Assembly: GCA_041640595.1 (NCBI GenBank)
Contig: JBEPZY010000006.1
Location: forward strand, 128,001 to 192,000
Length of the DNA stretch: 64,000 nucleotides
Direction of reading: 5' to 3'
Source: Gemmatales bacterium
GTDB taxonomy: Bacteria; Planctomycetota; Planctomycetia; Gemmatales; HRBIN36
A program made the position numbers and the translations under genes. The notes beneath the pieces were generated by a model. It made no database searches, was not told the DNA's origin, and saw only the letters and a list, made by a program, of their open reading frames with translations. Below are positions 2,649-16,107 of this stretch, one piece after another (the stretch's first letter is position 1; each line of letters starts with the position of its first letter).

Positions 2649-2847
2649 GTTGTAATTTACTTGCTAACTTCTGAGGCCAAGCCCTCTTTCGGTCATCGCC
2701 CACTGACCACGCTTCCCGAGCGCCCTACGAGGTTGATGAACACGTTGCATCGGCCCGGCAGATGGGCTTTGCTAATTGCACACCGCCTGGTATCCCGAAC
2801 CCTATCCTGCAGCAATTTCACCGGATGGCTTTACAGGAGCAGAGGAG

Positions 2848-3351
2848 ATGGTATTTGTGCCTATGTCGCCCGAAAGCCTGGAGTGCGCGGAACCTTCCCA
2901 GCGAGTCATCGAACGGATCGGCACTGATGTGCCTGACCGAGGATTCGTCATCTTACGCCTGTCGGCAATGGACGGAAGTCGCGTTATTGAGCTTTACCAG
3001 CCGGAGGTGATCATTGGCCGGCACTCTCGGGCCGATATTCGTATTCCCTGCCGCGACGTCAGCCGCCGTCATTGCCGGCTGGTGTTCGAGTCCGGACAGT
3101 GGTACGTCGAAGACCTGGGCAGTTTGAACGGCACCTACGTCAATGACGAGGCGGTGCAACGGGCGTTGTTACTGCCCAACTCCCTGCTCCGAGTGGCCCG
3201 GCACTCGTTTGTGGTTACCTGGCCCCAGCTGGATACAACGGTGGATTGTCCTAACCCGGAAGCCCACCTTTCTGAACTCCCTGACCGCCGCGCTCGCCAG
3301 GTACTGGAAAGTATTGCCGAACAGCTGCCGGAACAGACCACGCCCGCCTGA
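2848..3351 (+). CDS. FHA domain protein
   Basis: IGR, VSRRHC, DLGSLNGTYVN FHA motifs; start chosen at ATG 2848 with AGGAG upstream (ORF open from 2776). Confidence 0.85.
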   Translation: MVFVPMSPESLECAEPSQRVIERIGTDVPDRGFVILRLSAMDGSRVIELYQPEVIIGRHSRADIRIPCRDVSRRHCRLVFESGQWYVEDLGSLNGTYVNDEAVQRALLLPNSLLRVARHSFVVTWPQLDTTVDCPNPEAHLSELPDRRARQVLESIAEQLPEQTTPA

Positions 3352-3517
3352 CCGATTTGCTGGGCCATTCCATTACGGGCAACCTGACGGGTTCCCCCCA
3401 TGCCTGCTCCATGAAATTGAGCCTGAAGCGAGCGAATCTGCGGCGTTATCGCGCAGTGTGGTCAGGGAACATCTCTTTCTTCGCGGCGACGAACCATGGT
3501 ATGAATGAGCTTTCGGT

Positions 3518-4819
3518 TCACCGCACGGCGTAGAAAACGAGACCACTCAGCAATTTTGGATAGAAATACGTACTCTTCGGCGGCATGCGTTCTCCGTGCC
3601 CGGCCAGGCGAACTACCTCTGCCATGCTCACCGGCGGCACCAGTGCTACCAGATCGCACTCGCCGCGGTGAAGCGAGTTGACGGCCAGTTCGGCCTGATG
3701 AACGTACTCAAAGCGAAGCTGGTTCTGGCTATATGGTCGCAGCAACGCCCCCAGCACCAATTCGTGCAGGATACTCACCGCCAAACTCCGCCAGGCTGGA
3801 CTACGCTGCGGTAACAGTTCTGCCAACCGCTCACCGCGCCGTAGCCGCGCCAGCTGCCAGACTCCGTCGGAGGTACCCAATCCTAAAAGACTCTGATCCG
3901 TGTCGCTCTCGATGAGTTCGCCGAGTTCATAGCCAGCGGATTCTCCCTGGCCGAAATGTTCCAGGTCAAACTCATCGCGCAAAGCCCGGGTCAGAGTGTC
4001 GGCGTCCAATCGTTGCAATCCGGACACCAGCCGATGCGTGGGCAGAATCAGCAAACCAGGATCGCTCATGCCCACCAATGCCATGAGCACATAATTGGCC
4101 GGCGCTGTATCACCGGTAAGCAAGCCCGCAGCTCGCAGCTCCTCGCGATAACGCAAGGCCGTCTCGTAACGGTGATGCCCGTCGGCTATGTACACGGGTA
4201 GCGGATAAAGCAATCTCTGCACCTGTGTGATACGCTGCGGATCCATGATGCGCCAGAGTCGGTGCACTGTTCCTGCTTCGTCGCTGGCTTCCAGTGGTGG
4301 TAAGCGCTGCACCGCACTGTCGAGCAACTCCTGCGCCTGACCGCTGTCATCGGGATAAAGTCCGAACAAAGGGCACAAATTCATCCCCGTCGCTCGCAGC
4401 AAGCGGAGGCGATCTTCTTTCGGGCCGGGCAGCGTTTCTTCATGGGGAAATATTTTCCCCTGGCCGAACGGTTCCAGCCGCACCGCCGCGAGAAAACTCC
4501 GGCGGATGTAGGTGCGATTTTTCCAGCTGAATTGCTGGTGATAAACGTACAATGCCGGTTCCGAATCTTGCCGGAGGATGCCCTGCCGTTGCCATTCTCG
4601 CAACAAAGTCGCGGCACGAGTGTAGCGATTGTCAGCCTCATTATCGGTTGGTTCGACGCGATTCAGAATCAAGCGCACCACGTTGTATGGATGCCGCTGG
4701 TAAAGTTTTTCCTGCAGCGTTGCATCAATCACGTCATAAGGTGGTGCGGTTACCGCGCTGAGAGTGCCGACGTGTCCCAGGTCGTATCGCCAGGCGCGAA
4801 AAGGTTGTATCTCGGGCAT
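3518..4819 (-). CDS. DUF1015 family protein
   Basis: PF.AWRY, APPYDVI, PHEET, IADGHHRYE, PKSTYFYPK motifs; start at MPEIQPF. Confidence 0.9.
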   Translation of the reverse strand: MPEIQPFRAWRYDLGHVGTLSAVTAPPYDVIDATLQEKLYQRHPYNVVRLILNRVEPTDNEADNRYTRAATLLREWQRQGILRQDSEPALYVYHQQFSWKNRTYIRRSFLAAVRLEPFGQGKIFPHEETLPGPKEDRLRLLRATGMNLCPLFGLYPDDSGQAQELLDSAVQRLPPLEASDEAGTVHRLWRIMDPQRITQVQRLLYPLPVYIADGHHRYETALRYREELRAAGLLTGDTAPANYVLMALVGMSDPGLLILPTHRLVSGLQRLDADTLTRALRDEFDLEHFGQGESAGYELGELIESDTDQSLLGLGTSDGVWQLARLRRGERLAELLPQRSPAWRSLAVSILHELVLGALLRPYSQNQLRFEYVHQAELAVNSLHRGECDLVALVPPVSMAEVVRLAGHGERMPPKSTYFYPKLLSGLVFYAVR

Positions 4820-4846
4820 GCAGTTCAGCTCCAGCAATAGGCGTGG

Positions 4847-6436
4847 TCAGGGGCGATTCATTCCCACAAAGCTACCCTCATTCTCGCGTACCAGCGACCA
4901 GAGGAAGTTGCCGAGGTTGGGACTATCATAATAGAAGCCCACGGCGTGGATGCGCACTCGCCGCACTGCCCCGTCTGCCTGAGCTGCTGGAGCTTGTGGC
5001 GTATTCCACTTGCGGATGGCCACTAACAGCCGCGGTGCCAGCAATCGCTCCCGCTCGACGTTGCTCAGAGCCAGTTCTTGCGGCGTCAGATCAGGAGCTT
5101 CGGTTGGCAGTCCGTCGGAAAACAAAATAATCGTGTCCAGACCCAGCGGGCGATGCCGAAAGGCTTCCGCAAAAGCCGCATGCAGATTCGTCCCGCCAGC
5201 GGGCTGAATGGTCTGAAGCGCTTGCAATACCTGTTGCGGTGATTTATCCCGGTCAAAAGGCAGCCATGCCCCTGCTTTGCCCAGCGGATAATGCACCTGG
5301 CTGGAAAAGGTGATGACCTGAAAGCTCTCCAGGTGTGGCATGCTGGCAAGCACATGGCGCACCGTCTCGCAAACCATTGGCCACTTGGTTGGGTCATCCG
5401 TCTGCGGATCGCGTTTGCCCATGCTGCCGGAAGTATCCACCAGGAAAATGGCCCGGCGACCGCTCAAATCGACGCCGGCGAATCGAGCTTCGGCCTGGCG
5501 AAGTTGGGCGCGGAGTGTTTCGGCTTCCTTTCGACCCGCTGCTACCTGATGATGCGCCAGCACCAGTAAATCTGACAAGCGCTGATTCTCTTGCCGTTGC
5601 AGTTTCAAGCGCTGCTGCAAGTCATCGTTTTCCTTACGGAGCTGATGGCCGGTCTCGGTGAGCGTGGCGAACTGCTTCTCACGCATTGCCAGCTCCGACC
5701 GCAGCCGGGCAAGCTCCGCCTGGAGTTGCTGGACTTTTTGTTCCGCCTGGTCGCGGCTAGTGCTTAGTTGAGTGGCCTGGCTTTGCAAATCCCGGCGTTC
5801 CTTTTCGAGCGTGGCCAGGTGCTCGTTCAGCGTTCGCACTTGTTTGTCCAGATCATTGGCGCGAGTGGCCAGCAGTGCCGATTCTGCATGCAAACTGGCC
5901 AGGGTGTGGCGTAACTTCTCGGCCAGGCGACGTTCTTCGGCCAACTGCTGTTGCATCTGTTGCAACTGGCGATCAGTGCTCTGGAGGCGGTGCTCGGCTT
6001 GCTGGAGCTTGACAGCGAGTTGCTGGGCCTGCTGCTGGCTGCGATGCAGTTGCTCAGCCAAATCCTCGCTCACCATCTCCAGCAACTGCCGCATGGCTCG
6101 TTCCCCGCGAAGCTGCTGTTGCAGTAATTCTTTTTGTTCCAGCGTTTGCTGCCGGGCCTGTTCTGTTTTCGCTAACGTTTCCTGCGTCTGGGCGAGCTGC
6201 TGTTCTTTTTGTTGCAAGTTTTGTTGCGCCAGGTTGAGTTGACCAAGTAACTGCTCCAGCTGGCTCTGCGTTTCATTCAGACGGCTATGGGCAGCCTGCA
6301 GATGGGAAGAAACGCGGCTGGCCTGCCAGTAGCTCAGAAACATCAGGAAAATCACGGCACCCAGGGCGTTACAGATCACGTCCACAAGCGACAGGTTGAA
6401 AAAGGGCGGATAGCGATGGCGATAGCGGTTTCGCAT
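4847..6436 (-). CDS. Membrane-anchored coiled-coil vWA-domain protein with ExbD/MotB-like N-terminal TM segment
   Basis: Basic N-terminus then FNLSLVDVICNALGAVIFLMF; long Q/E/L-rich coiled coil; vWA MIDAS DTSGS, GGTN, FSDG. Confidence 0.85.
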   Translation of the reverse strand: MRNRYRHRYPPFFNLSLVDVICNALGAVIFLMFLSYWQASRVSSHLQAAHSRLNETQSQLEQLLGQLNLAQQNLQQKEQQLAQTQETLAKTEQARQQTLEQKELLQQQLRGERAMRQLLEMVSEDLAEQLHRSQQQAQQLAVKLQQAEHRLQSTDRQLQQMQQQLAEERRLAEKLRHTLASLHAESALLATRANDLDKQVRTLNEHLATLEKERRDLQSQATQLSTSRDQAEQKVQQLQAELARLRSELAMREKQFATLTETGHQLRKENDDLQQRLKLQRQENQRLSDLLVLAHHQVAAGRKEAETLRAQLRQAEARFAGVDLSGRRAIFLVDTSGSMGKRDPQTDDPTKWPMVCETVRHVLASMPHLESFQVITFSSQVHYPLGKAGAWLPFDRDKSPQQVLQALQTIQPAGGTNLHAAFAEAFRHRPLGLDTIILFSDGLPTEAPDLTPQELALSNVERERLLAPRLLVAIRKWNTPQAPAAQADGAVRRVRIHAVGFYYDSPNLGNFLWSLVRENEGSFVGMNRP

Positions 6437-6528
6437 GGCTTACCTCCGCAGAAATTAGCTCATTCCGATCGGTCAGGAGGCAATGCCCCAGTTGGCGATC
6501 AGTGCTGACCGCTGTCAGCAGGGATAGC

Positions 6529-7638
6529 TTAAGGTGAGCCGGCTTTGACCTGCATGTGCGGCAGCCGTGACCAATCGCCGTCAGGCACAGGCAGCTGGTG
6601 CGGGCAAATCTCAGAAAGGGCCGGATTTTCTGCCAGCCAGAGAGCGGCAGTGAGGTAACTTTCCTCAGGCAAGTCCCGTACCACCTGTGAAAATCCCAGT
6701 GCCTCATAGACCTGACGGAAAAACGCGGGTAATTCGCCAGCGCGTGCTGTGAGCCAGACCTCCGGCATTGCTTGCTGGCGTAACGTAGCAAGGAAATTCG
6801 CAACCGCACGCGCCGACTGCTGCGCTAGCGTCAAGCAGCTCCGCTGCACCAGTTCGGGTGTCAGAGTTAACCGGCAATGGAAATCCGGGGTGGTGATGTT
6901 CAGCGTATGCCGGTGCTGGGTCAGTCCAGCCCAGTGGGCCTCAATTTGCTCATACAAGCACTGATCGGCTTCGGGAGTGCGTCGTGGGTCGCGGCGGAAA
7001 TCCCGAATTGCCAGTTCGCTGGCCGCCAGCATCACCCGTTCCAGCCAAACTCGCCTGCCCAGTTCGCGCAACCGCAGACGTTGGCCGACATAGACTTCCC
7101 CGGATTGAATTTGCCCTGACGTAATCACGCAGGCCCAATCGTCCACATCCACCAGACAGAGCACCCCGGCCGGGACGCCTTCTACCAATCCGGCAACCAA
7201 CCAGACCAGGTCCTGCCAGAGCGCGATCGGAGACGGCAGGCCCGCAGCCTGCAATTCCCGCACGAGAAAAGCTGCCTGCTCACTCTGCAAATAAGCGGGA
7301 ACCAGCAGAATAGTACGACCCGCCTGCTGCCCATGCGGTCGCAACATCTCCGCTATTAGCTGCACCAGTTGCCGGGCGGTGAGACGTTTTCCTCCTGAAT
7401 ACCAGACCTGGCGAGGGTACAGTTCCGGCAAAAAGTCGTAGAGTATCTGTCGAGGTTCCTGTCGGTGTCGCTTCCAGGCAGGCCAGCCCAGTTGCCACAG
7501 CCGGCCAGCCCGTGTGATGGCCAGCGGGACGCGAAAACTGTTTTCCTGCAGGCAAACCGGTTGCGCAGCACTCGCGCCCGAGGCGAACCACACCCGTAGC
7601 CACCTTGCCGTCAACTCCACCAGCAACACTTTTGCCAC
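6529..7638 (-). CDS. Degenerate Hsp70/actin-fold nucleotide-binding-domain protein
   Basis: VPAYL..EQ....AAGL, LVDVD, ELG..W...V, DPR...ADQ.LYEQ pattern of the Hsp70 NBD; canonical phosphate-1/2 motifs are altered. Confidence 0.65.
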   Translation of the reverse strand: MAKVLLVELTARWLRVWFASGASAAQPVCLQENSFRVPLAITRAGRLWQLGWPAWKRHRQEPRQILYDFLPELYPRQVWYSGGKRLTARQLVQLIAEMLRPHGQQAGRTILLVPAYLQSEQAAFLVRELQAAGLPSPIALWQDLVWLVAGLVEGVPAGVLCLVDVDDWACVITSGQIQSGEVYVGQRLRLRELGRRVWLERVMLAASELAIRDFRRDPRRTPEADQCLYEQIEAHWAGLTQHRHTLNITTPDFHCRLTLTPELVQRSCLTLAQQSARAVANFLATLRQQAMPEVWLTARAGELPAFFRQVYEALGFSQVVRDLPEESYLTAALWLAENPALSEICPHQLPVPDGDWSRLPHMQVKAGSP

Positions 7639-7656
7639 CGCTCCATCTCCCTGTGC

Positions 7657-8526
7657 TCAGCCCTTGACGACACGCCCTGGCCTGAGAGTCTCCTCGAGCG
7701 CTTCACCATCTGCGGATGGTTCTTCCGTTACCAGCTCCAGCCGATAGAGCCGGGCGATCAACCGGTGCAGAACATATTCCTGGCACTGCAGAACCAGGTC
7801 ATCGTCGCGGCGTTGCACAGCATGCAACAGGAAAAGTAAAACCAAGCTCAGCAGGAGCGCGACGAACGTCGTGTCGAAAGCAATAGCCAGCGAGTAACTG
7901 GTGTGCGTTAGAAAATCCCGCAGACCCTGTTCGACCTGGCTGGGATCGCTGGCCAGGGAAGGTGCGCCGACCAGGGCCATGCTGATCCCGCGCACTGTCC
8001 CGACAAAACCTAAAGCGGGGATCGCCCAGGCCAGGTAATGCACAGTACTCAGAGCCACCGCCCGCCTTTCCGCTTCAATTTCTGCCTGAGCACGCACCAG
8101 TTCCGCGGCTTGCTGTGCCGAGCGACTGACGGCAAATTTTTCCAGGGCCATTCGCAACAATCGCCCTAACAAATAGCGACCCCGTTCGTCGAGCTGTTCC
8201 ACCCTGCGTTGCAGTTGCGGAGCGTCTTCCGGCAGAATTCGCAGCGTCGGATCATCGGGAAGCCAGGACAGATGCAGGGCTCGCAATTGGCTTCCGCTTT
8301 GCCAGTAATGTTGCAATAGAATCAGCCCTGCCCAGACAAAACAAACGTAACAGGCCGACTGTTCCCAACCCAGGAGCATGCGGCCCAGGCGTTGCGGAGT
8401 GAATAACATACTTTCCCCGCCGGCCGAGCCGTATTGCCACAGCGGCAAACAAATCGCACCGACTACCAGGACCGCCACCACCAGAAACGCTGTTTCCGAG
8501 ACCCCGCTCCATCCGCGCTGATTCAT
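7657..8526 (-). CDS. MotA/TolQ/ExbB proton-channel family protein
   Basis: IPALGFVGTVRGI and LAIAFDTTFVAL TM motifs; GGGAGGAG RBS. Confidence 0.9.
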   Translation of the reverse strand: MNQRGWSGVSETAFLVVAVLVVGAICLPLWQYGSAGGESMLFTPQRLGRMLLGWEQSACYVCFVWAGLILLQHYWQSGSQLRALHLSWLPDDPTLRILPEDAPQLQRRVEQLDERGRYLLGRLLRMALEKFAVSRSAQQAAELVRAQAEIEAERRAVALSTVHYLAWAIPALGFVGTVRGISMALVGAPSLASDPSQVEQGLRDFLTHTSYSLAIAFDTTFVALLLSLVLLFLLHAVQRRDDDLVLQCQEYVLHRLIARLYRLELVTEEPSADGEALEETLRPGRVVKG

Positions 8527-9164
8527 CTGTCTCCTCCCGAACTGACCGGAGCTTCTTTGCTCCCGTTGATTTAATCGCTGACCTACTTGATATCTTACTG
8601 CGCCGGACTAACCTGTATATGCCTGCGACGAAAGTTCGTCAGGGCAGCTGCGCAATGAAACCCGAGTAAAATCGCTTTCGCTTGCAAAAACCCACGGTCC
8701 GCCACTATCCTGGCCAGACGCGCAAGCCGATGGTTTCTCGCTCGCAGCTAACAAAATCCTTCGGCCATTTCCATTTGGCCCTGGAGCTGTGCAACTGCGC
8801 TCGAGCGAGGCAGAGTTCACATTGACAACACCATCCTGACCGGCCGATGGAACAGGCCAACCGGCTCCGGGCCAGAATACTTTCATTTGCCTGCAACACA
8901 CCGGTGCCGAACGATAAGCAAGCCCGAGCACGGTGCCCGATGCGTGGAGCGATCAGATAATGCGAGCCAGGACGAACCACAAAAAGCGTATGCACAGCCA
9001 CCGGTGACAATCCATATTCACCGTTGTCTATCTGCCACCATTGACGCCGGCGGTCGAAAGTTCGATATTGTTTAGGAACGATGAAAGTGCAATGATCGGC
9101 GAACCACTCATTTCTCGCCCGACGCCGTACCACGGGCCGAAAAGCTATTAGAAAGGAGCACCGC

Positions 9165-10334
9165 ATGGGCTTCAAACAAACCGATGAACATCGCAGTGGT
9201 AAAGGTTCGTATCACCAGATCGGGTTGGTGCGAGGGCAGTTCGGCGATATTCCGGAGGATGAATGGTTGAAATTCATTGCGGAGGTCGGTTTTGATGGCT
9301 GGGAGGAAGCGTCGTGGGAGCTGGATTTGTCGCGCTGTGCAACCGATGCCGGGGCGGAAGCTTATGCCCGCGAGCGCGTTGAGAAGGCACGCAAATACGG
9401 TCTGGAAATTTTCACCGTCGCTGTGCACCTGCAGGGACAGGCCCTCGGCGATGAACCCAGCGCCAAGACTTTGCAATTCGTCGGCGGAGAAGCGCTGGAG
9501 GCTTACAAACGCTGGCGTGCCGCCGGCAACAATCCACCACGCACCGATCCTTACTACGTTCCCGAGGATGTCGGCCGACTGATTCATAAGCAGGCTCTGG
9601 AAGCGTTGTGCAATGCCGCTCGTTATGCGCATTATCTGGGCAAGTTGCAGAATCGCCGCGTGTGTCTGCCCGGCTTTACCGGTTCGCCTGCCCATTGCTG
9701 GAGCCACTGGTTTGAGTTTCCACCGTTGCCACGCAGCCTTGGTGGGTATCCGATTCCCGATGTGCGCGAGGTGAGCCTGGAGCTGCTGGTGGAGCGGTTT
9801 GCGCCGTTTCTGGATGTATGCAAGCGGTATGGCGTGACGTTTGACCTGGAATGCCATCCCAGCGAACGGGCTATGGGCGACCTCGAAAGTGCCGGTGATT
9901 ATCTCCGCGCCATGGACAAGGCCGGTTACAGCAGTGTGGTCGGTTTCAACCTGGATGGCTCCCACATGGAATGGCAGGGCGTGTCGGTGATCGAGTTCAT
10001 CCGCGAGTACGGCGACCGTATCCATTGCGCCCACATCAAGGGAGTCTGGGTCGCCAAAGAACATACTCGTGCCGGTCGGCTCGGCGGTCACCGTCCCATG
10101 GGGCACAAATTCAACGGCTGGAACTTCGTAACCGCCGGCTCCGCTCGCGATGCCAACTCCGTCGAGGAGATCATTATCGAACTCAATCGCGCTGGTTATG
10201 ACGGCGCCATCAATATCGAGTGGGAAGATAACGACGTGGAAAAACGTGCCGGTGCTCGCTATGCTCTGGCTAATGTGCGTCGTGCCGATCACCCGCCCAG
10301 TCGCTCTCGCCACGACGAAACTTTGCGCGTTTGA
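9165..10334 (+). CDS. Sugar phosphate isomerase/epimerase (xylose-isomerase-like TIM barrel)
   Basis: GFDGWE, LECHP, FNLDGSH, HCAHIK, GYDG..NIEWED motifs; AAGGAG RBS. Confidence 0.9.
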   Translation: MGFKQTDEHRSGKGSYHQIGLVRGQFGDIPEDEWLKFIAEVGFDGWEEASWELDLSRCATDAGAEAYARERVEKARKYGLEIFTVAVHLQGQALGDEPSAKTLQFVGGEALEAYKRWRAAGNNPPRTDPYYVPEDVGRLIHKQALEALCNAARYAHYLGKLQNRRVCLPGFTGSPAHCWSHWFEFPPLPRSLGGYPIPDVREVSLELLVERFAPFLDVCKRYGVTFDLECHPSERAMGDLESAGDYLRAMDKAGYSSVVGFNLDGSHMEWQGVSVIEFIREYGDRIHCAHIKGVWVAKEHTRAGRLGGHRPMGHKFNGWNFVTAGSARDANSVEEIIIELNRAGYDGAINIEWEDNDVEKRAGARYALANVRRADHPPSRSRHDETLRV

Positions 10335-10578: not shown

Positions 10579-12834
10579 ATGGAGGGAATCCTTTACCAGG
10601 AAATAGCGGGTCGGCTGGTATTGCATGCCATGCCCGTGTTGCTGGCGGTGCTGGCAATTTTCGCCATTGCCTATCGCTATTACAGTGCATTTCTGGCAGC
10701 GAAAGTGGCAGTCCTGGACGACCGTAATCCCACGCCGGCTCATCGCCTTTACGATGGCCAGAATTACCATCCGACCAGTCGCTGGGTGCTGTTTGGGGTA
10801 CAGTTTGCCGCGATTTCCGGAGCAGGCCCGCTGATTGGTCCGGTGCTGGCTATGCAGTTTGGTTATCTCCCAGGGTTGTTATGGCTGGTGATTGGCGTAT
10901 GTCTGGCGGGTGCGGTGCAGGACATGCTCGTTCTGGCGGCGTCGGTTCGGCGTGGAGGCAAATCGCTAGCGGAAATTGCTCGCACCGAGTTAGGCCCCTG
11001 GGCAACGGTGGTGGTGAGTGCAGCCATTTTGTTCATCGTGGTCATTGCTCTGGCTGGACTGGGAATGGTCGTGGTCAAAGCGTTAGGCGGAGAAGAAGTA
11101 CCTCTGTCTGCCGGGATGCAAATCCGTCTTCCAGAAAACGCCGAGCTCGTCCAGGAATCCGCCAATGGCGATGCCTTGCGCTACCGTTTTCCGGAAAACT
11201 GCGCTTTGCGTTATACACCGCAGGATCCCTGGCGGACAAGGCCGGAGAGTTTTCTTCTGCGGGTGCCCAGGGATCAACCACTCGCTGTCGAGAACGGCCT
11301 GATCACGCTCCCCGCCGGTTGTCGGCAAATTGTCCCGGGCAGTTCGTGGGGCACGTTCACCATTGCCTGCACCATTCCCATCGCGCTGCTGGTTGGTTTC
11401 TGGATGTACCGTCTCCGTCCGGGAAAAGTGGTAGAAGCTTCGCTGGTAGGAGCGGTTGGTGTGATAGCGGCCACGATTCTGGGTAGCTGGATTCCTGGTT
11501 CGCCGCTCGAACCTTACTTTTCGCTGACCCGTGAGCAAACCATTCTGGCGATGTGCACCTATGGTTTCATCGCTTCGGTGTTACCGGTCTGGCTGCTGTT
11601 GGCGCCGCGGGATTACCTGTCCAGTTTCCTGAAAATTGGAACGATTCTGCTGCTGGTAGTGGGAGTCCTGGTGGCCAACCCGCCGCTTCGACATCCGCCG
11701 ATCAACGAGGTATTCCTCGCCGGCGGCCCGACCTTCAAAGGCAGCGTATTTCCGTTTGTGTTTATCTGCATCATGTGCGGGGCGATCAGTGGTTTTCACT
11801 CTCTGGTATCGTCAGGTACCACTCCGAAGATGGTGGACAAGGAAAGCGACATTCGCCCGGTCGGTTACGGAGCGATGCTGATGGAAGGCTTAGTCGGTGT
11901 GGTGGCCCTGATTGCTGCTGCTTCCCTCGACCCAAAACTCTATTTCGACATGAACACCGACCTCAGTGAGGTTGCCCAGTATCAGCAGCAGCTCGACGAA
12001 CTCTACCGCCGTTTGAGTCAATCACGCGAAGCAAAAGACCCACTGCACCAGGCTGGAGTGCAGGATTTGCATCAATTAGCAGTGCCGACGCACGACCTGG
12101 CCGAGGTCGAACGGATGGTCGGCGGCGAGGCCTTACGCGGACGCACCGGTGGAGCGGTGACGCTTGCCGTGGGCATGGCCCTGATTTTCACCGATGCCCT
12201 GCGCTGGACCGGTCTGGCTATCGAACAGGTCATGAAATACTGGTACCATTTCGCGATCATGTTCGAGGCCCTGTTCATTCTCACGACAATTGACACCGGG
12301 ACGCGCATTGCTCGCTTCCTTTTGCAGGAAGCGCTGGGCAAAGTTTATCGCCCGTTTGAGAGAACGGACTGGCTGCCGGGAGCGGTGCTGGCAACGGCTG
12401 TGGTAACGATGGCCTGGGGAGCGTTGATCTGGACGGGTTCGATCAGTACCATCTGGCCGATGTTCGGCATCGCCAATCAACTGCTGGCGGTCGTTGCTCT
12501 GGCCCTGGTTACGACGCTGCTTATTAACTCTGGCCGCGGTCGGTACGCCTGGGTGACTTTGCTGCCGATGCTGTTTGTCATCAGCACGACGATGACGGCG
12601 GGAGTACAGATGATCACCCGGCAATTCCCGGCGATGATCGCCCAGGGGGGCAGCCGTGCGCTGGCCGGGTATTTGAACATCGGCCTGACGTTGTTCGTCA
12701 TGCTCTGCGTCGTGGTGCTGTTGCTGAATGCGGTGGTGCGCTGGGTGACGGTCTGGCTTACCGCTCCAGTGGCACTGGTGCAGCAAGCATCCGCCCCAGC
12801 ACCGGCTGATCCGTTCCGCGAACCGGGCGGTTAA
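10579..12834 (+). CDS. cstA: Carbon starvation protein A family transporter
   Basis: TPAH..DG, FAAISGAGPLIGP, CGAISGFHSL.SSGTT, GRTGG, WYHFAIMFEALFILTT.D.GTR, IWP.FG.ANQL. Confidence 0.92.
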   Translation: MEGILYQEIAGRLVLHAMPVLLAVLAIFAIAYRYYSAFLAAKVAVLDDRNPTPAHRLYDGQNYHPTSRWVLFGVQFAAISGAGPLIGPVLAMQFGYLPGLLWLVIGVCLAGAVQDMLVLAASVRRGGKSLAEIARTELGPWATVVVSAAILFIVVIALAGLGMVVVKALGGEEVPLSAGMQIRLPENAELVQESANGDALRYRFPENCALRYTPQDPWRTRPESFLLRVPRDQPLAVENGLITLPAGCRQIVPGSSWGTFTIACTIPIALLVGFWMYRLRPGKVVEASLVGAVGVIAATILGSWIPGSPLEPYFSLTREQTILAMCTYGFIASVLPVWLLLAPRDYLSSFLKIGTILLLVVGVLVANPPLRHPPINEVFLAGGPTFKGSVFPFVFICIMCGAISGFHSLVSSGTTPKMVDKESDIRPVGYGAMLMEGLVGVVALIAAASLDPKLYFDMNTDLSEVAQYQQQLDELYRRLSQSREAKDPLHQAGVQDLHQLAVPTHDLAEVERMVGGEALRGRTGGAVTLAVGMALIFTDALRWTGLAIEQVMKYWYHFAIMFEALFILTTIDTGTRIARFLLQEALGKVYRPFERTDWLPGAVLATAVVTMAWGALIWTGSISTIWPMFGIANQLLAVVALALVTTLLINSGRGRYAWVTLLPMLFVISTTMTAGVQMITRQFPAMIAQGGSRALAGYLNIGLTLFVMLCVVVLLLNAVVRWVTVWLTAPVALVQQASAPAPADPFREPGG

Positions 12835-12859
12835 TCCACTAAGCGAGGAAGCATCGGCA

Positions 12860-13606
12860 ATGTATCCGCTCTGGTATCAGACGCTGATGCACCGCTTGTG
12901 GTACCCGCCGGTGAGCACGGCCATGAACGTGCTCTTCAGTGTGCGCACCTGGGGCAGGCAACGTGTGCCGATGAACGGTGGCCTGCTCGTGGTTGCCAAC
13001 CATCAGAGTTTTTTCGATCCGGTACTGGTCGGCATGGCCGTGCGGCGTCGGTTGTGCTATCTGGCCCGTAAAACTCTTTTTCGCAACCCGCTGTTCAGCT
13101 GGTTGATACGCAGTTTCGGAGCGATCCCTATTGACCAGGAAAAACCGAGCCTGGAGGGCATACGCACGGCTCTGGAGTTGCTACGTCGGCAAGAGGCTGT
13201 CGTGCTGTTTCCCGAAGGGGAACGCACGCCGCACGGGCAGATGCAACCGCTGAAACCAGGAGTGGCGTTACTGATTCGGCGAGGTCAGGTGCCGGTCTTG
13301 CCTGTTGCCATTGCTGGTGCCTACGAAATCTGGCCCCGCCATTCTCCCCTGCCGATACTTTGTCCGCTGTGGTCCCGGCGACGTTGCCGGCAAACTGGAG
13401 CCCACCCGTCGATTGCCAAATCGGTTTCCTCAGCAACGCAGTCGCACCAGCCGGGTCGTCGGGGGATTGCTGTTGTGGTAGGCCAGCCCATTCCCTTTGC
13501 CGACTTCGAGAACCTTCCGAACGAGGCCATTCTCGCACGATTGCATCAGGTTTTGCTCGACCTTTTCCATCAGGCTGAGCAACGGCGTTTTGTTTGCCTG
13601 GAGTGA
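12860..13606 (+). CDS. plsC: Lysophospholipid acyltransferase (PlsC-like)
   Basis: NHQSFFD and FPEGER motifs. Confidence 0.88.
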   Translation: MYPLWYQTLMHRLWYPPVSTAMNVLFSVRTWGRQRVPMNGGLLVVANHQSFFDPVLVGMAVRRRLCYLARKTLFRNPLFSWLIRSFGAIPIDQEKPSLEGIRTALELLRRQEAVVLFPEGERTPHGQMQPLKPGVALLIRRGQVPVLPVAIAGAYEIWPRHSPLPILCPLWSRRRCRQTGAHPSIAKSVSSATQSHQPGRRGIAVVVGQPIPFADFENLPNEAILARLHQVLLDLFHQAEQRRFVCLE

Positions 13607-13740
13607 AAATCCCGACCCGTTTGGCGAAGAAGAATCTATTCCGTCGCAAACAACCCGCACATTCCGACCTTTCGCCGGGTGCACATGCAAACTGCAGCAC
13701 CGCCGAATTCGTCCCGCCCGACTTCGGCAGTCTCGTATGT

Positions 13741-14283
13741 TCATTCCTCGCACGAATCGGCTTCTGCTTGCAGCCGGGCGATGTATTCGATCTCCTCGCG
13801 GAGAGATTCCGCGGCAGGGACGGTGGTATTGTCCGGATGGAGACAAAACAGGTCCCAGGGCTCGTTTTTGTAGCCCCACTGACGCACATACCAGGTGCCA
13901 TCGTCATCCTGCAACAACGGAAAGACGACACATTGATACGGCTTGTAACGGTATTTATCACCTTCAGCGGCGCCGAGTTTGTGCAAGACGCAGCCTTGGT
14001 TGAAGAACACGCACCAGCCCTTGACTACAGCAACCAGCGGCAAACCTGCACGCCGACGCCGCGTCAAATACCCTCGCCGCTCCACATGGCGGCGAGCTTC
14101 CGGTCGCAACATTGGCAGCACTCGTGGCAGATGCTTGTTCAAAAGCTCGATTTCCGATTCCACCAGACCAGGCCGGCCATTTCGACAGCACAGGCCCTCA
14201 CAACCTCGACCGAAAGTACACTCAAAGCGGGCCTCATGCAGGTTCTGTATCTGCACGACCGGTAAGGAAGTTTTCGCGGGCAT
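13741..14283 (-). CDS. Cys-cluster protein, DUF3109/YkgJ-like
   Basis: C..GCEGLCC..G, CVFF..GC.LH, KP..C..FP Cys pattern. Confidence 0.8.
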   Translation of the reverse strand: MPAKTSLPVVQIQNLHEARFECTFGRGCEGLCCRNGRPGLVESEIELLNKHLPRVLPMLRPEARRHVERRGYLTRRRRAGLPLVAVVKGWCVFFNQGCVLHKLGAAEGDKYRYKPYQCVVFPLLQDDDGTWYVRQWGYKNEPWDLFCLHPDNTTVPAAESLREEIEYIARLQAEADSCEE

Positions 14284-14385
14284 GCTTCCGAGCCAGTATT
14301 ACGATCTTTGCTGGCGGCGACCGTTTTTTGAGCAGAAGTGGGACGGAGAAAGTGGCCCCAGCAGCCAGGCATTGCCAGCGCTATG

Positions 14386-16107
14386 TCACGACAATCGCTG
14401 CAAAGCGTTACGGATTTCACTCGCAGCGCGATGAGCAGCCTGCTCGACGGGGACGGTAAAGCTCTCGCTCTGGTGCCGCCATTTCATTTCCACCTCGCCC
14501 CGTTGCAGGGTTTTTTCGCCGATGACAATCCGCAACGGTAGCCCGATGAGATCGGCGTCTTTGAATTTGAAACCGGCACGAGCATCCCGGTCGTCGAGCA
14601 ATACTTCGATGCCCTGCTCGCTTAGCTGGCGGTAAATGCGTTCGGCAGTCTGCTGGACTTCCGGTTGGGCGACGTTGAGCGGTAACACCAGCACCTGATA
14701 CGGAGCCAGGCTTACCGACCAGATGATCCCGTTTTCATCGTGACTGGTTTCGATGAGTGCCGCCAGAATGCGGTTGATACCAATCCCGTAACAACCCATG
14801 ATAATCGGATGTGCCTGGCCTTTTTCGTCCAGGTATTGAGCACCGAGCTTGGCGGAGTATTTGGTACCGAGTTTGAAAACGTGTCCGATTTCGATACCCC
14901 GGCGCAAGCGTAGTACGCCGGAACAACGCGGACACGGATCGCCATCTCCAGCGATCCGCAGATCGGCGACCAGGCTGGGCTGAAAATCGCGGCCCGGCTG
15001 AACGCCTACCAGATGGTAGTCCATTTCGTTAGCACCAGTAACTCCGCCTGCCACGAGCAAGACGGCTCGATCAGCAAGGAGGCGTACTTTCAAGCCGATG
15101 GGCCCGGCAAAGCCCACCGGAGCACCGGTAACTCGTTCGATGGTTTCCGGGTCAGCGAGTTCGACGCGACTGACTCCAAGTGTGCGGCGCAACTTGTTTT
15201 CGTTTACCTCATGGTCGCCGCGAACCAGCACCGCCACCGGTTCACCATCGGCCAGGTAGATCAGCGTCTTGATCATTTGCTGCGGCAGGCACTGCAAAAA
15301 ACCGCTGACTTGCTCGATGGTGCTGCGTCCCGGCGTGTGGACTTTGCGGAGTTCCTTTGCGAATAACGGTGCAGCAGCCACCTCGCGATCGCCGATCTCC
15401 GCACGTTCCAGGTTGGCAGCATAGCGGCACTGTTCGCATTCCACCAGGGCATCTTCGCCGGTCTCGGCCAGCACCATGAACTCGTGGGAAGCCTCGCCGC
15501 CAATCGGGCCGCTTTCCGCTTCGACCACCACATATTTCAGACCGCATCGGTCGAAAATGCGGCAATAAGCCTGGTACATTTTTTCGTAACTTTGATTGAG
15601 ATGCGGCACATCTACGTCGAAACTGTAGGCATCCTTCATCAGAAATTCGCGGGTTCGCAGCACTCCAAACCGCGGCCGGGGTTCGTCGCGGAATTTGGTC
15701 TGGATTTGATAAAAAATGACGGGCAACTGACGGTAAGAATTGATATGGTTGCGAACCAGGTCGGTAATAACCTCCTCATGAGTAGGGCCGAGCACCAAAA
15801 GCGCCCCTTTGCGATCGCGCACTTTCATCAGGGTGTCGCCATAATCTGCGAATCGGCCCGTCTCCTGCCAGAGTTCTGCCGGATGAATCGCAGGCATCAA
15901 CACTTCCAGGGCGCCGCTGCGATCCATTTCCTCACGGACAATACGAATAGCTTTTTGCAAAGCACGGAAACCCAGCGGCAGATAGGTGTACGCCCCGGCA
16001 ACCAGTTGCCGGATCAATCCCGCCCGCACCATCAAACGATGGCTGGGCACCTGGGCTTCTGCAGGGTCTTCCTTGAGTGTGGGAATAAATGTCTGCGACC
16101 AGCGCAA
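14386..16107 (-). CDS. proS: Proline--tRNA ligase (bacterial type with INS editing domain)
   Basis: LGPTHEE, FRDE.RPRFG..R.REF.MKD, GIEIGH.F.LG, MGCYGIG, YbaK-like insertion; TTG start with GGAGG RBS. Confidence 0.97.
   Translation of the reverse strand: MRWSQTFIPTLKEDPAEAQVPSHRLMVRAGLIRQLVAGAYTYLPLGFRALQKAIRIVREEMDRSGALEVLMPAIHPAELWQETGRFADYGDTLMKVRDRKGALLVLGPTHEEVITDLVRNHINSYRQLPVIFYQIQTKFRDEPRPRFGVLRTREFLMKDAYSFDVDVPHLNQSYEKMYQAYCRIFDRCGLKYVVVEAESGPIGGEASHEFMVLAETGEDALVECEQCRYAANLERAEIGDREVAAAPLFAKELRKVHTPGRSTIEQVSGFLQCLPQQMIKTLIYLADGEPVAVLVRGDHEVNENKLRRTLGVSRVELADPETIERVTGAPVGFAGPIGLKVRLLADRAVLLVAGGVTGANEMDYHLVGVQPGRDFQPSLVADLRIAGDGDPCPRCSGVLRLRRGIEIGHVFKLGTKYSAKLGAQYLDEKGQAHPIIMGCYGIGINRILAALIETSHDENGIIWSVSLAPYQVLVLPLNVAQPEVQQTAERIYRQLSEQGIEVLLDDRDARAGFKFKDADLIGLPLRIVIGEKTLQRGEVEMKWRHQSESFTVPVEQAAHRAASEIRNALQRLS

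Follow-up and report, generated by a model that had tools for sequence, protein, structure and literature searches.

Which protein works with a channel of the MotA/TolQ/ExbB family when its own locus offers no ExbD, TolR or MotB? The question is raised by three genes in a 64,000-nt stretch of DNA from a Gemmatales bacterium (assembly GCA_041640595.1, contig JBEPZY010000006.1, positions 128,001-192,000 of the forward strand), here called the window. They lie on the minus strand, to which all coordinates of the trio refer, in the order channel (7657..8526), Hsp70-like protein (6529..7638) and vWA protein (4847..6436), with intergenic gaps of 18 bp and then 92 bp, and each is present as one copy in its genome. 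An earlier reading made from the DNA letters alone (the sequence-only reading) had pointed to three co-oriented genes with these gaps, its coordinates agreeing exactly with the open reading frame (ORF) list, and had proposed that they encode an uncharacterised ion-driven motor. Judging from the sequences, we consider it fairly probable that the trio is a proton motor of the 5:2 type represented by MotAB, ExbBD and TolQR, and that the vWA protein acts as its B subunit.

The channel pore and the helix of its candidate partner

The channel protein (289 aa, four predicted membrane helices) is the proposed A subunit, expected to be a pentamer; its residues 96-102 (RILPEDA) belong to a conserved loop on the cytoplasmic side. 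Its residues 121-224 match the Pfam family MotA_ExbB (PF01618) with 32.2 bits against a cut-off of 22.9 (E 1e-7), and the whole-genome search with this family scores the window channel at 32.4 bits. The motif of the third transmembrane helix, AIPALGFVGTVRG, contains the pore threonine T177 (codon 7996-7998), and a second pore threonine, T220 (7867-7869), stands beside an extra acidic residue, D218 (7873-7875). G173, G176, T177, V178 and T220 are invariant in all 15 aligned channels, two canonical ExbB proteins of the same genome among them, and P170 is kept in at least 90% of that alignment. Every one of the 91 distinct channel relatives from Gemmatales has P170, G173, G176, T177, D218 and T220. 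The transmembrane motifs of the family had been described as intact, and they are: the pore motif GxxGTV and the second threonine are kept, and the Pfam score lies above the cut-off. The acidic residue beside the second pore threonine distinguishes the clade of the window channel. At position 218, the 13 non-canonical planctomycete channels of the alignment have D (9), E (3) or N (1), and the equivalent site is occupied by F in one canonical ExbB and by N in the other.

The vWA protein (529 aa) is the proposed B subunit, expected to be a homodimer. At its N-terminus, MRNRYRHRYPPFFNLSLVDV, an 11-residue basic tail leads into a hydrophobic helix spanning residues 12-37 (FFNLSLVDVICNALGAVIFLMFLSYW, 6326..6403), and Asp19 (codon 6380-6382) lies seven residues into this helix, so that the sequence-only reading had both the arrangement, a basic tail followed by a helix with an intramembrane Asp, and the codon exactly right. 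Conservation of the Asp had been set beforehand as a test on which the proposal could fail. It is present in 77 of 78 distinct vWA-protein N-termini from Gemmatales, the remaining one having a gap at this site, and a wider set of 26 N-termini includes two paired vWA proteins from a distant planctomycete (locus L121, discussed below) and, from other Planctomycetota, three single forms. In this wider set nothing but D19, G26 and the initiator Met is invariant (26/26). An ExbD protein of the same genome reads MELNLTPLLDV and has its Asp likewise at residue 19, and the position of the Asp is the same in the two proteins whether counted from the N-terminus or from the start of the helix. Helix 12-37 contains no His and hence no motif of the SHLS type.

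Beyond the helix, residues 38-318 (5483..6325) form a coiled-coil stalk recognised by its heptad periodicity. The hydrophobic period is 3.50 residues, with a power of 224 against 9.8 +/- 10 for shuffled sequences, a value reached by 0 of 1000 shuffles, which bears out the coiled coil of about 280 residues postulated earlier. The stalk is rich in Q, L, A, E and R and has no proline. In an AlphaFold2 (AF2) monomer model, helices at 15-182 and 192-318 precede a vWA domain at 328-526, for which the predicted local distance difference test (pLDDT) value is mostly above 90. This domain (4859..5455) matches Pfam VWA_2 (E 8e-13) and aligns in Foldseek over about 210 columns with solved vWA domains (E 1e-8 to 1e-6). 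Its metal-ion-dependent adhesion site (MIDAS) is complete, as the sequence-only reading had also said: D334 (5435-5437), S336, S338, T416 (5189-5191) and D441 (5114-5116) do not vary among the 21 aligned relatives (21/21), and 73-74 of 75 distinct relatives have them, gaps accounting for the rest. Matches of the vWA protein to SMC, Rad50, JetC and LmuB involve the coiled coil only and were set aside as compositional. Look-ups in the ESM Atlas returned unnamed clusters and generic vWA clusters (Planctomycetota, Pseudomonadota, Bdellovibrionota), which are leads and not evidence.

Contigs from four RNA-library runs (hot-spring or freshwater) cover the trio in a strain 95-99% identical to window positions 3400-9400. 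One difference in these contigs (6385 C>G) replaces Val18 by Leu, as in most relatives, and the Asp19 codon is unaltered among the listed strain differences.

Retention of the three genes and their published relatives

Of 41 genomes of the order, 40 have a relative of the vWA protein; the exception is an assembly rated 100% complete. When species-representative genomes were scanned by pattern, at least 577 confirmed channel relatives emerged; the best 80 of these carry mostly Gemmatales-type titles, and the seven outlier labels among these 80 (Alcaligenaceae 5, Kuenenia 1, Singulisphaera 1) all belong to metagenome-assembled genomes and call for caution. Deduplication left 93 unique Gemmatales loci, of which 67 extend 3.3 kb or more past the channel gene on its downstream side. 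Co-occurrence of the three genes, on which the motor proposal leaned, held up well in this set: the full trio stands in the same order in 63 of the 67 adequately flanked loci, and of the other four, two have all three genes with frame breaks, one is missing the gene for the Hsp70-like protein and one retains nothing of the trio but the channel gene. None of the 93 loci has two complete vWA genes. In one genus (g4) the trio genes lie at three distant places and all are kept in 5 of 5 genomes; retention of all three though unlinked points to a functional tie beyond operon inheritance.

Could a conventional B subunit be encoded elsewhere? A genome-wide Pfam search found 7 MotA_ExbB matches in the genome of the window. 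Its 4 ExbD matches sit in two ExbB-ExbD-ExbD clusters and its single MotB_plug match adjoins a MotA gene on contig 4, and because every ExbD or MotB thus lies beside another channel gene, no orphan B-type subunit is left for the window channel. The earlier observation that no ExbD, TolR, MotB or TonB gene is nearby holds as well. TonB_C, TolB_N and OmpA-family domains were not found by these Pfam models in this genome (95.5% complete), so the partners of its two ExbBD motors are also unrecognised.

The core of this design has been predicted in print, and in this respect the sequence-only reading, which took the motor to be uncharacterised, has to be corrected. In their main text, Williams-Jones et al. 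(Mol Biol Evol 2025;42:msaf138; PMC12204202) describe tolQ-like genes that lack tolR or exbD and are tightly linked to genes for membrane-tethered vWA proteins, the motor type being predicted from genome context and AlphaFold3 (AF3) models only. The 'transpore helix' of their second vWA family (TPH-vWA; section 8 and Fig. 4c-d) has a conserved Asp, and the AF3 models place the Asp pair inside the Thr ring. The paper reports TPH-vWA genes mainly from Proteobacteria and Verrucomicrobia and says that they come 'predominantly in heterologous pairs'. Neither an Hsp70-like partner nor Gemmata is mentioned in the main text and one supplementary text file of that paper. The 2020 eLife survey of vWA proteins (PMC7159879) deals in its relevant passages with MoxR/GTPase conflict systems, and MotA has 0 occurrences in it. 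Full-text literature searches found no experimental study of such a TolQ-like/vWA motor.

In every tested feature except pairing, the window trio agrees with the published description: its vWA gene shares a compact locus with a tolQ-like gene, tolR and exbD are absent, and a helix with a conserved Asp and no SHLS motif accompanies a channel with a Thr ring. Unlike the TPH-vWA motors, it has one vWA gene in place of a heterologous pair, which implies a homodimer, and it belongs to Gemmatales, whereas the published family comes mainly from Proteobacteria and Verrucomicrobia. Any connection by sequence to the Idiomarina seed proteins of that paper would be indirect, running through L121. At this distant planctomycete locus, a channel that matches the Gemmatales profile with E 7e-58 is accompanied by a 472-aa Hsp70-like protein and by two vWA proteins of 363 and 333 aa that have the same N-terminal motif, the set being preceded by a TPR gene and a PEGA/FGE-sulfatase-like gene. 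With homologues of all three window proteins, L121 bridges the paired and the Gemmatales forms. Its two vWA proteins have only 333 and 363 residues in total, in contrast to the window protein with its stalk of about 280 residues. At two further planctomycete loci (L124 and L133), a channel gene and a single vWA gene are surrounded by genes for FHA, Ser/Thr kinase, PP2C phosphatase and PEGA proteins. Unlike L121, L124 and L133, the window trio has no linked kinase, phosphatase, PEGA/FGE or TPR gene. The Gemmatales form is a stripped-down variant: its only vWA gene encodes a very long stalk, its Hsp70-like partner lacks an FHA domain, and no kinase genes are linked to it.

The proposed motor and the competing explanations

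Few kinds of 5:2 ion-driven motor are known, namely the flagellar stators, Ton, Tol, the gliding motor GldLM and Zorya. With ExbB-ExbD, TolQ-TolR and MotA-MotB, the window trio shares an A-family channel with the GxxGTV motif and pore threonines, the operon arrangement, and a single-pass partner that has its N-terminus inside and an Asp close to where its helix meets the cytoplasm. It differs from them in the four helices of its channel and the invariant D218 beside the second pore threonine, and in a partner that has a coiled coil and a vWA domain instead of the periplasmic domain of ExbD/TolR, the MotB plug or an OmpA domain; nor does the window system include a third protein of the TonB or TolA type, as the Ton and Tol motors do. 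Zorya ZorAB is likewise a 5:2 motor with a long coiled coil, and the trio, as read from its genes, would be of the same MotAB-like ion-driven type. The coiled coil of Zorya is part of ZorA and cytoplasmic, whereas in the window it belongs to the B-type subunit and is predicted to lie outside the cytoplasm; the window also has no ZorC/D genes, and its system is distributed like a housekeeping one.

In the motor that we propose, the channel protein would form a pentamer around a homodimer of the N-terminal helices of the vWA protein. Asp19 would face the ring of T177 and T220 and would take up and release protons, and this cycling would drive a rotation or a power stroke or pulling movement. The long parallel coiled coil would carry the motion across the wide periplasm to the vWA head, which would grip a ligand via its metal site, probably an outer-membrane or wall-associated protein. 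The planctomycete periplasm is unusually wide, and the stalk would measure about 40 nm if it is a straight parallel dimer, as estimated from the textbook rise per residue. The Hsp70-shaped protein, its glycine loops lost, would sit on the channel as a scaffold or clutch, at its cytoplasmic face. The trio would then be a stand-alone housekeeping envelope machine of Gemmatales, and its job in the cell may be envelope tethering, remodelling or uptake.

A bolder version of the proposal, prompted by a genome with no recognisable TonB, TolB or OmpA/Pal domain, makes the trio the main link between the energised inner membrane and the outer envelope in Gemmatales: a homodimeric axle of about 40 nm would span the wide periplasm and act through its MIDAS on a partner in the outer membrane or wall, and the dead Hsp70 clutch would replace the kinase/FHA control of other phyla. 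We regard this version as unlikely. Were it right, the roles served may include, for example, budding division, envelope invagination or macromolecule uptake.

Should the motor be real, the pore subunit itself would be a long rod with an adhesion head, a new route for proton-motive force across the periplasm, and every known kind of 5:2 motor has given rise to its own field of research. Among the forms compared, that of Gemmatales is the simplest, with three genes, one of them for the axle, no linked kinase or FHA genes, and a presence in nearly every genome of the order; a gene set so small and so nearly universal is well suited to initial experiments on such a motor. The trio may also help to explain how envelopes are energised in planctomycetes without recognisable Tol-Pal and TonB parts.

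Several results weigh against the proposed motor or reduce the support counted for it. In hhalign, the N-terminal 60 residues of the vWA protein align with the four ExbD proteins of the same genome with a probability of 0.12% (E 0.46, 5 columns), Pfam ExbD matches 0 of the 26 N-termini at E<=10, and Pfam ExbD (PF02472) has no match to the whole vWA protein at E<=0.1. A helix of 25 residues may be too short for tests of ExbD homology. Given the hhalign and Pfam results, the likeness to ExbD that the sequence-only reading had seen consists of the topology, the position of the Asp and a short L-D-V motif, and does not extend to sequence homology. The AF2 monomer breaks the stalk at residues 183-191 (pLDDT 43), and a hairpin that places the vWA head near the inner membrane may be the alternative to a straight stalk; the two halves of the stalk, however, add nearly in phase, and the heptad register continuing through the break favours a continuous stalk. 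Complex prediction returned no interface, and the contact between channel and Hsp70-like protein is graded as weak support. The genomes compared are kin, so the synteny counts overstate the independent support. Finally, the best RNA run (30 of 30 bins covered) covers the upstream intergenic stretch at similar depth too; carry-over of DNA is therefore possible, and the RNA contigs are no proof of transcription. Of the assignment of the vWA protein as B subunit, the parts that have gained support are thus the conservation of the Asp and the co-occurrence of the genes, and the part that has not is homology to ExbD.

The explanation that competes best with the motor is that the three genes share an operon and no more, the vWA protein being an anchored adhesin or scaffold whose Asp is structural or serves oligomerisation, and the MotA-like protein a separate channel or sensor. 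The link between the proteins does consist of synteny, conservation and analogy only, as this explanation would have it. An invariant charged residue in a single-pass helix is nevertheless unusual, the channel keeps its Thr ring with no other B subunit available, and all three genes are co-retained even where they are unlinked, all of which makes an operon of this kind improbable in our view.

A different arrangement of the same parts can also be imagined. TonB and TolA bind to the outside of the channel pentamer, and the vWA protein could bind there too as a force transducer, the true B subunit being an unrecognised small protein. The first membrane-tethered vWA family of PMC12204202, which occurs in Planctomycetes, is described in that paper as working in this way, and the missing ExbD homology of the window helix would fit. 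That family, however, carries an SHLS motif with a conserved His and lies beside tolR-like genes, whereas the window helix has a conserved Asp and no His, and neither a tolR or exbD gene nor a conserved extra small ORF accompanies the trio; we give this arrangement still less credence than an operon without a motor. Anti-phage defence of the Zorya kind, in which a MotA-like/MotB-like sensor motor would act with effectors, would be one form of the defence role that the sequence-only reading had raised and can hardly be upheld, for beyond the resemblance to ZorAB in 5:2 motor type and long coiled coil it has a faint match to NCBIfam ZorA_2 (11.2 bits where the cut-off is 100; E 0.14) in its favour, and against it stand PADLOC searches with 0 families for the channel and the Hsp70-like protein and only coiled-coil-type LmuB and JetC matches for the vWA protein, the lack of a linked nuclease or ZorC/D-like gene, and the occurrence of the system in 40 of 41 related genomes, single-copy, at varying genomic places and among unrelated neighbours, a housekeeping distribution that with the absence of defence hallmarks argues against an immune role.

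The Hsp70-like protein, neighbouring genes and related loci

The protein encoded between channel and vWA protein (369 aa, GTG start) has no Pfam match at E<=0.1 and belongs to no NCBIfam or PADLOC family. Its fold is recognised from structure. An AF2 model based on 18 relatives (pLDDT 89, predicted TM-score 0.88) has as its best Foldseek matches the nucleotide-binding domains of mortalin, DnaK and BiP (E 1.3e-19, TM-score 0.74), and hhalign aligns the protein with the DnaK of the same genome over 312 columns (probability 93.4%, E 2.6e-7). In this alignment, GIDLGTTNS of DnaK is paired with LLVEL-TARW, where E8 of the window protein is Asp in 15 of 18 relatives, and DLGGGTFD is paired with DVDDWACV; the KR..GR stretch falls opposite a gap and VGG of the adenosine site opposite TAR. 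D164 and D166 are still invariant among the relatives. The protein includes neither a substrate-binding domain nor an FHA domain. The degeneracy of its phosphate-binding glycine loops makes ATPase activity improbable, and the term 'dead' that had been applied to it, together with the Hsp70 fold, seems reasonable as far as catalysis is concerned.

Its role as a cytoplasmic adaptor, the other part of that earlier description, has fared less clearly: it obtained a weak pass in a complex-prediction test with the channel and nothing firmer. The median score for the pair was 0.37, the best of 3 controls scoring 0.00, and was graded as weak support. The mark used in this test is passed by 116 of 157 solved complexes and by 2 of 215 mismatched pairs, and passes with a score of at most 0.60 came from only 18 of the 157 solved complexes but from both of the mismatches that passed, counts that hold only roughly here, our own alignments having been the input. 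Between runs, 80% or more of the contacts recur, and the partner has a pLDDT of at least 78.

HMMER relatives of the Hsp70-like protein fall into 194 clusters, of which 150 were listed and 42 of these scanned for FHA domains. A C-terminal FHA domain is present in 31 of 32 scanned relatives of 473-549 aa and in 0 of 10 scanned relatives of 372-470 aa; in contrast to these Hsp70-like/FHA forms of about 500 aa, the window protein and its Gemmatales relatives (369-428 aa) are without it. In a sample of 301 planctomycete genomes, 39 match the channel profile and 24 the Hsp70-like profile, and the two matches are adjacent, besides in the window's own genome, in only one (G306). The remaining Hsp70-like matches are long proteins elsewhere in their genomes, some of them kinase fusions. 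The adjacency in one further genome indicates that, within this sample of the phylum, the Hsp70-like partner is lineage-restricted.

A Shine-Dalgarno-like GGGAGGAG (8531..8538), read from the sequence, lies 5-12 nt 5' of the channel gene's start codon ATG. Further upstream, some 640 bp with no convincing gene extend to a divergent plus-strand gene in the ORF list. The neighbours in the window encode a DUF1015 protein, an FHA protein, a xylose-isomerase-like TIM barrel and CstA. The DUF1015 gene (3518-4837, minus strand) begins 9 bp beyond the vWA stop codon and may share a transcript with the trio here. A 191-aa FHA-domain protein is encoded on the plus strand at 2776-3351, about 1.5 kb from the vWA gene; domain-level FHA matches flank 4 of 100 related loci at varying distances, so this gene is probably an unrelated neighbour. 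In other phyla the Hsp70-like partner itself has an FHA domain fused to it. Genes for DUF1015, the divergent TIM barrel, CstA and a HEAT/prenyltransferase-like protein are found at 0 of the 100 loci, and a wider operon was therefore rejected, none of these flanking genes belonging to the system.

Several other channel loci deserve mention in their own right. In a sister family of the same class (L126, L127 and L128), the channels have E instead of D beside the second pore threonine and are followed by two proteins of about 275-303 aa, which match the transpore-helix profile with a best E of 0.003 or not at all and may be another kind of partner. In another planctomycete (L135), an 843-aa protein (5186-7717, plus strand) ends in the MotA/ExbB domain; nearby, a Ser/Thr kinase and a full Hsp70 domain are fused in an 840-aa protein (11899-14421, plus strand), and a DnaJ-type zinc-finger protein is also encoded. 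Contig 3 of the window's own genome (L132) has a second non-canonical pair, in which the first gene encodes a 411-aa MotA/ExbB-like protein (6467-7702, minus strand) that matches the window channel profile with E 1.5e-19. The second gene there (4943-6460, minus strand) encodes a 505-aa protein with a long low-complexity middle and no vWA domain, and its N-terminus resembles a transpore helix (LSVLLCTLGS), with Ser at the site of the Asp and an Asp seven residues earlier.

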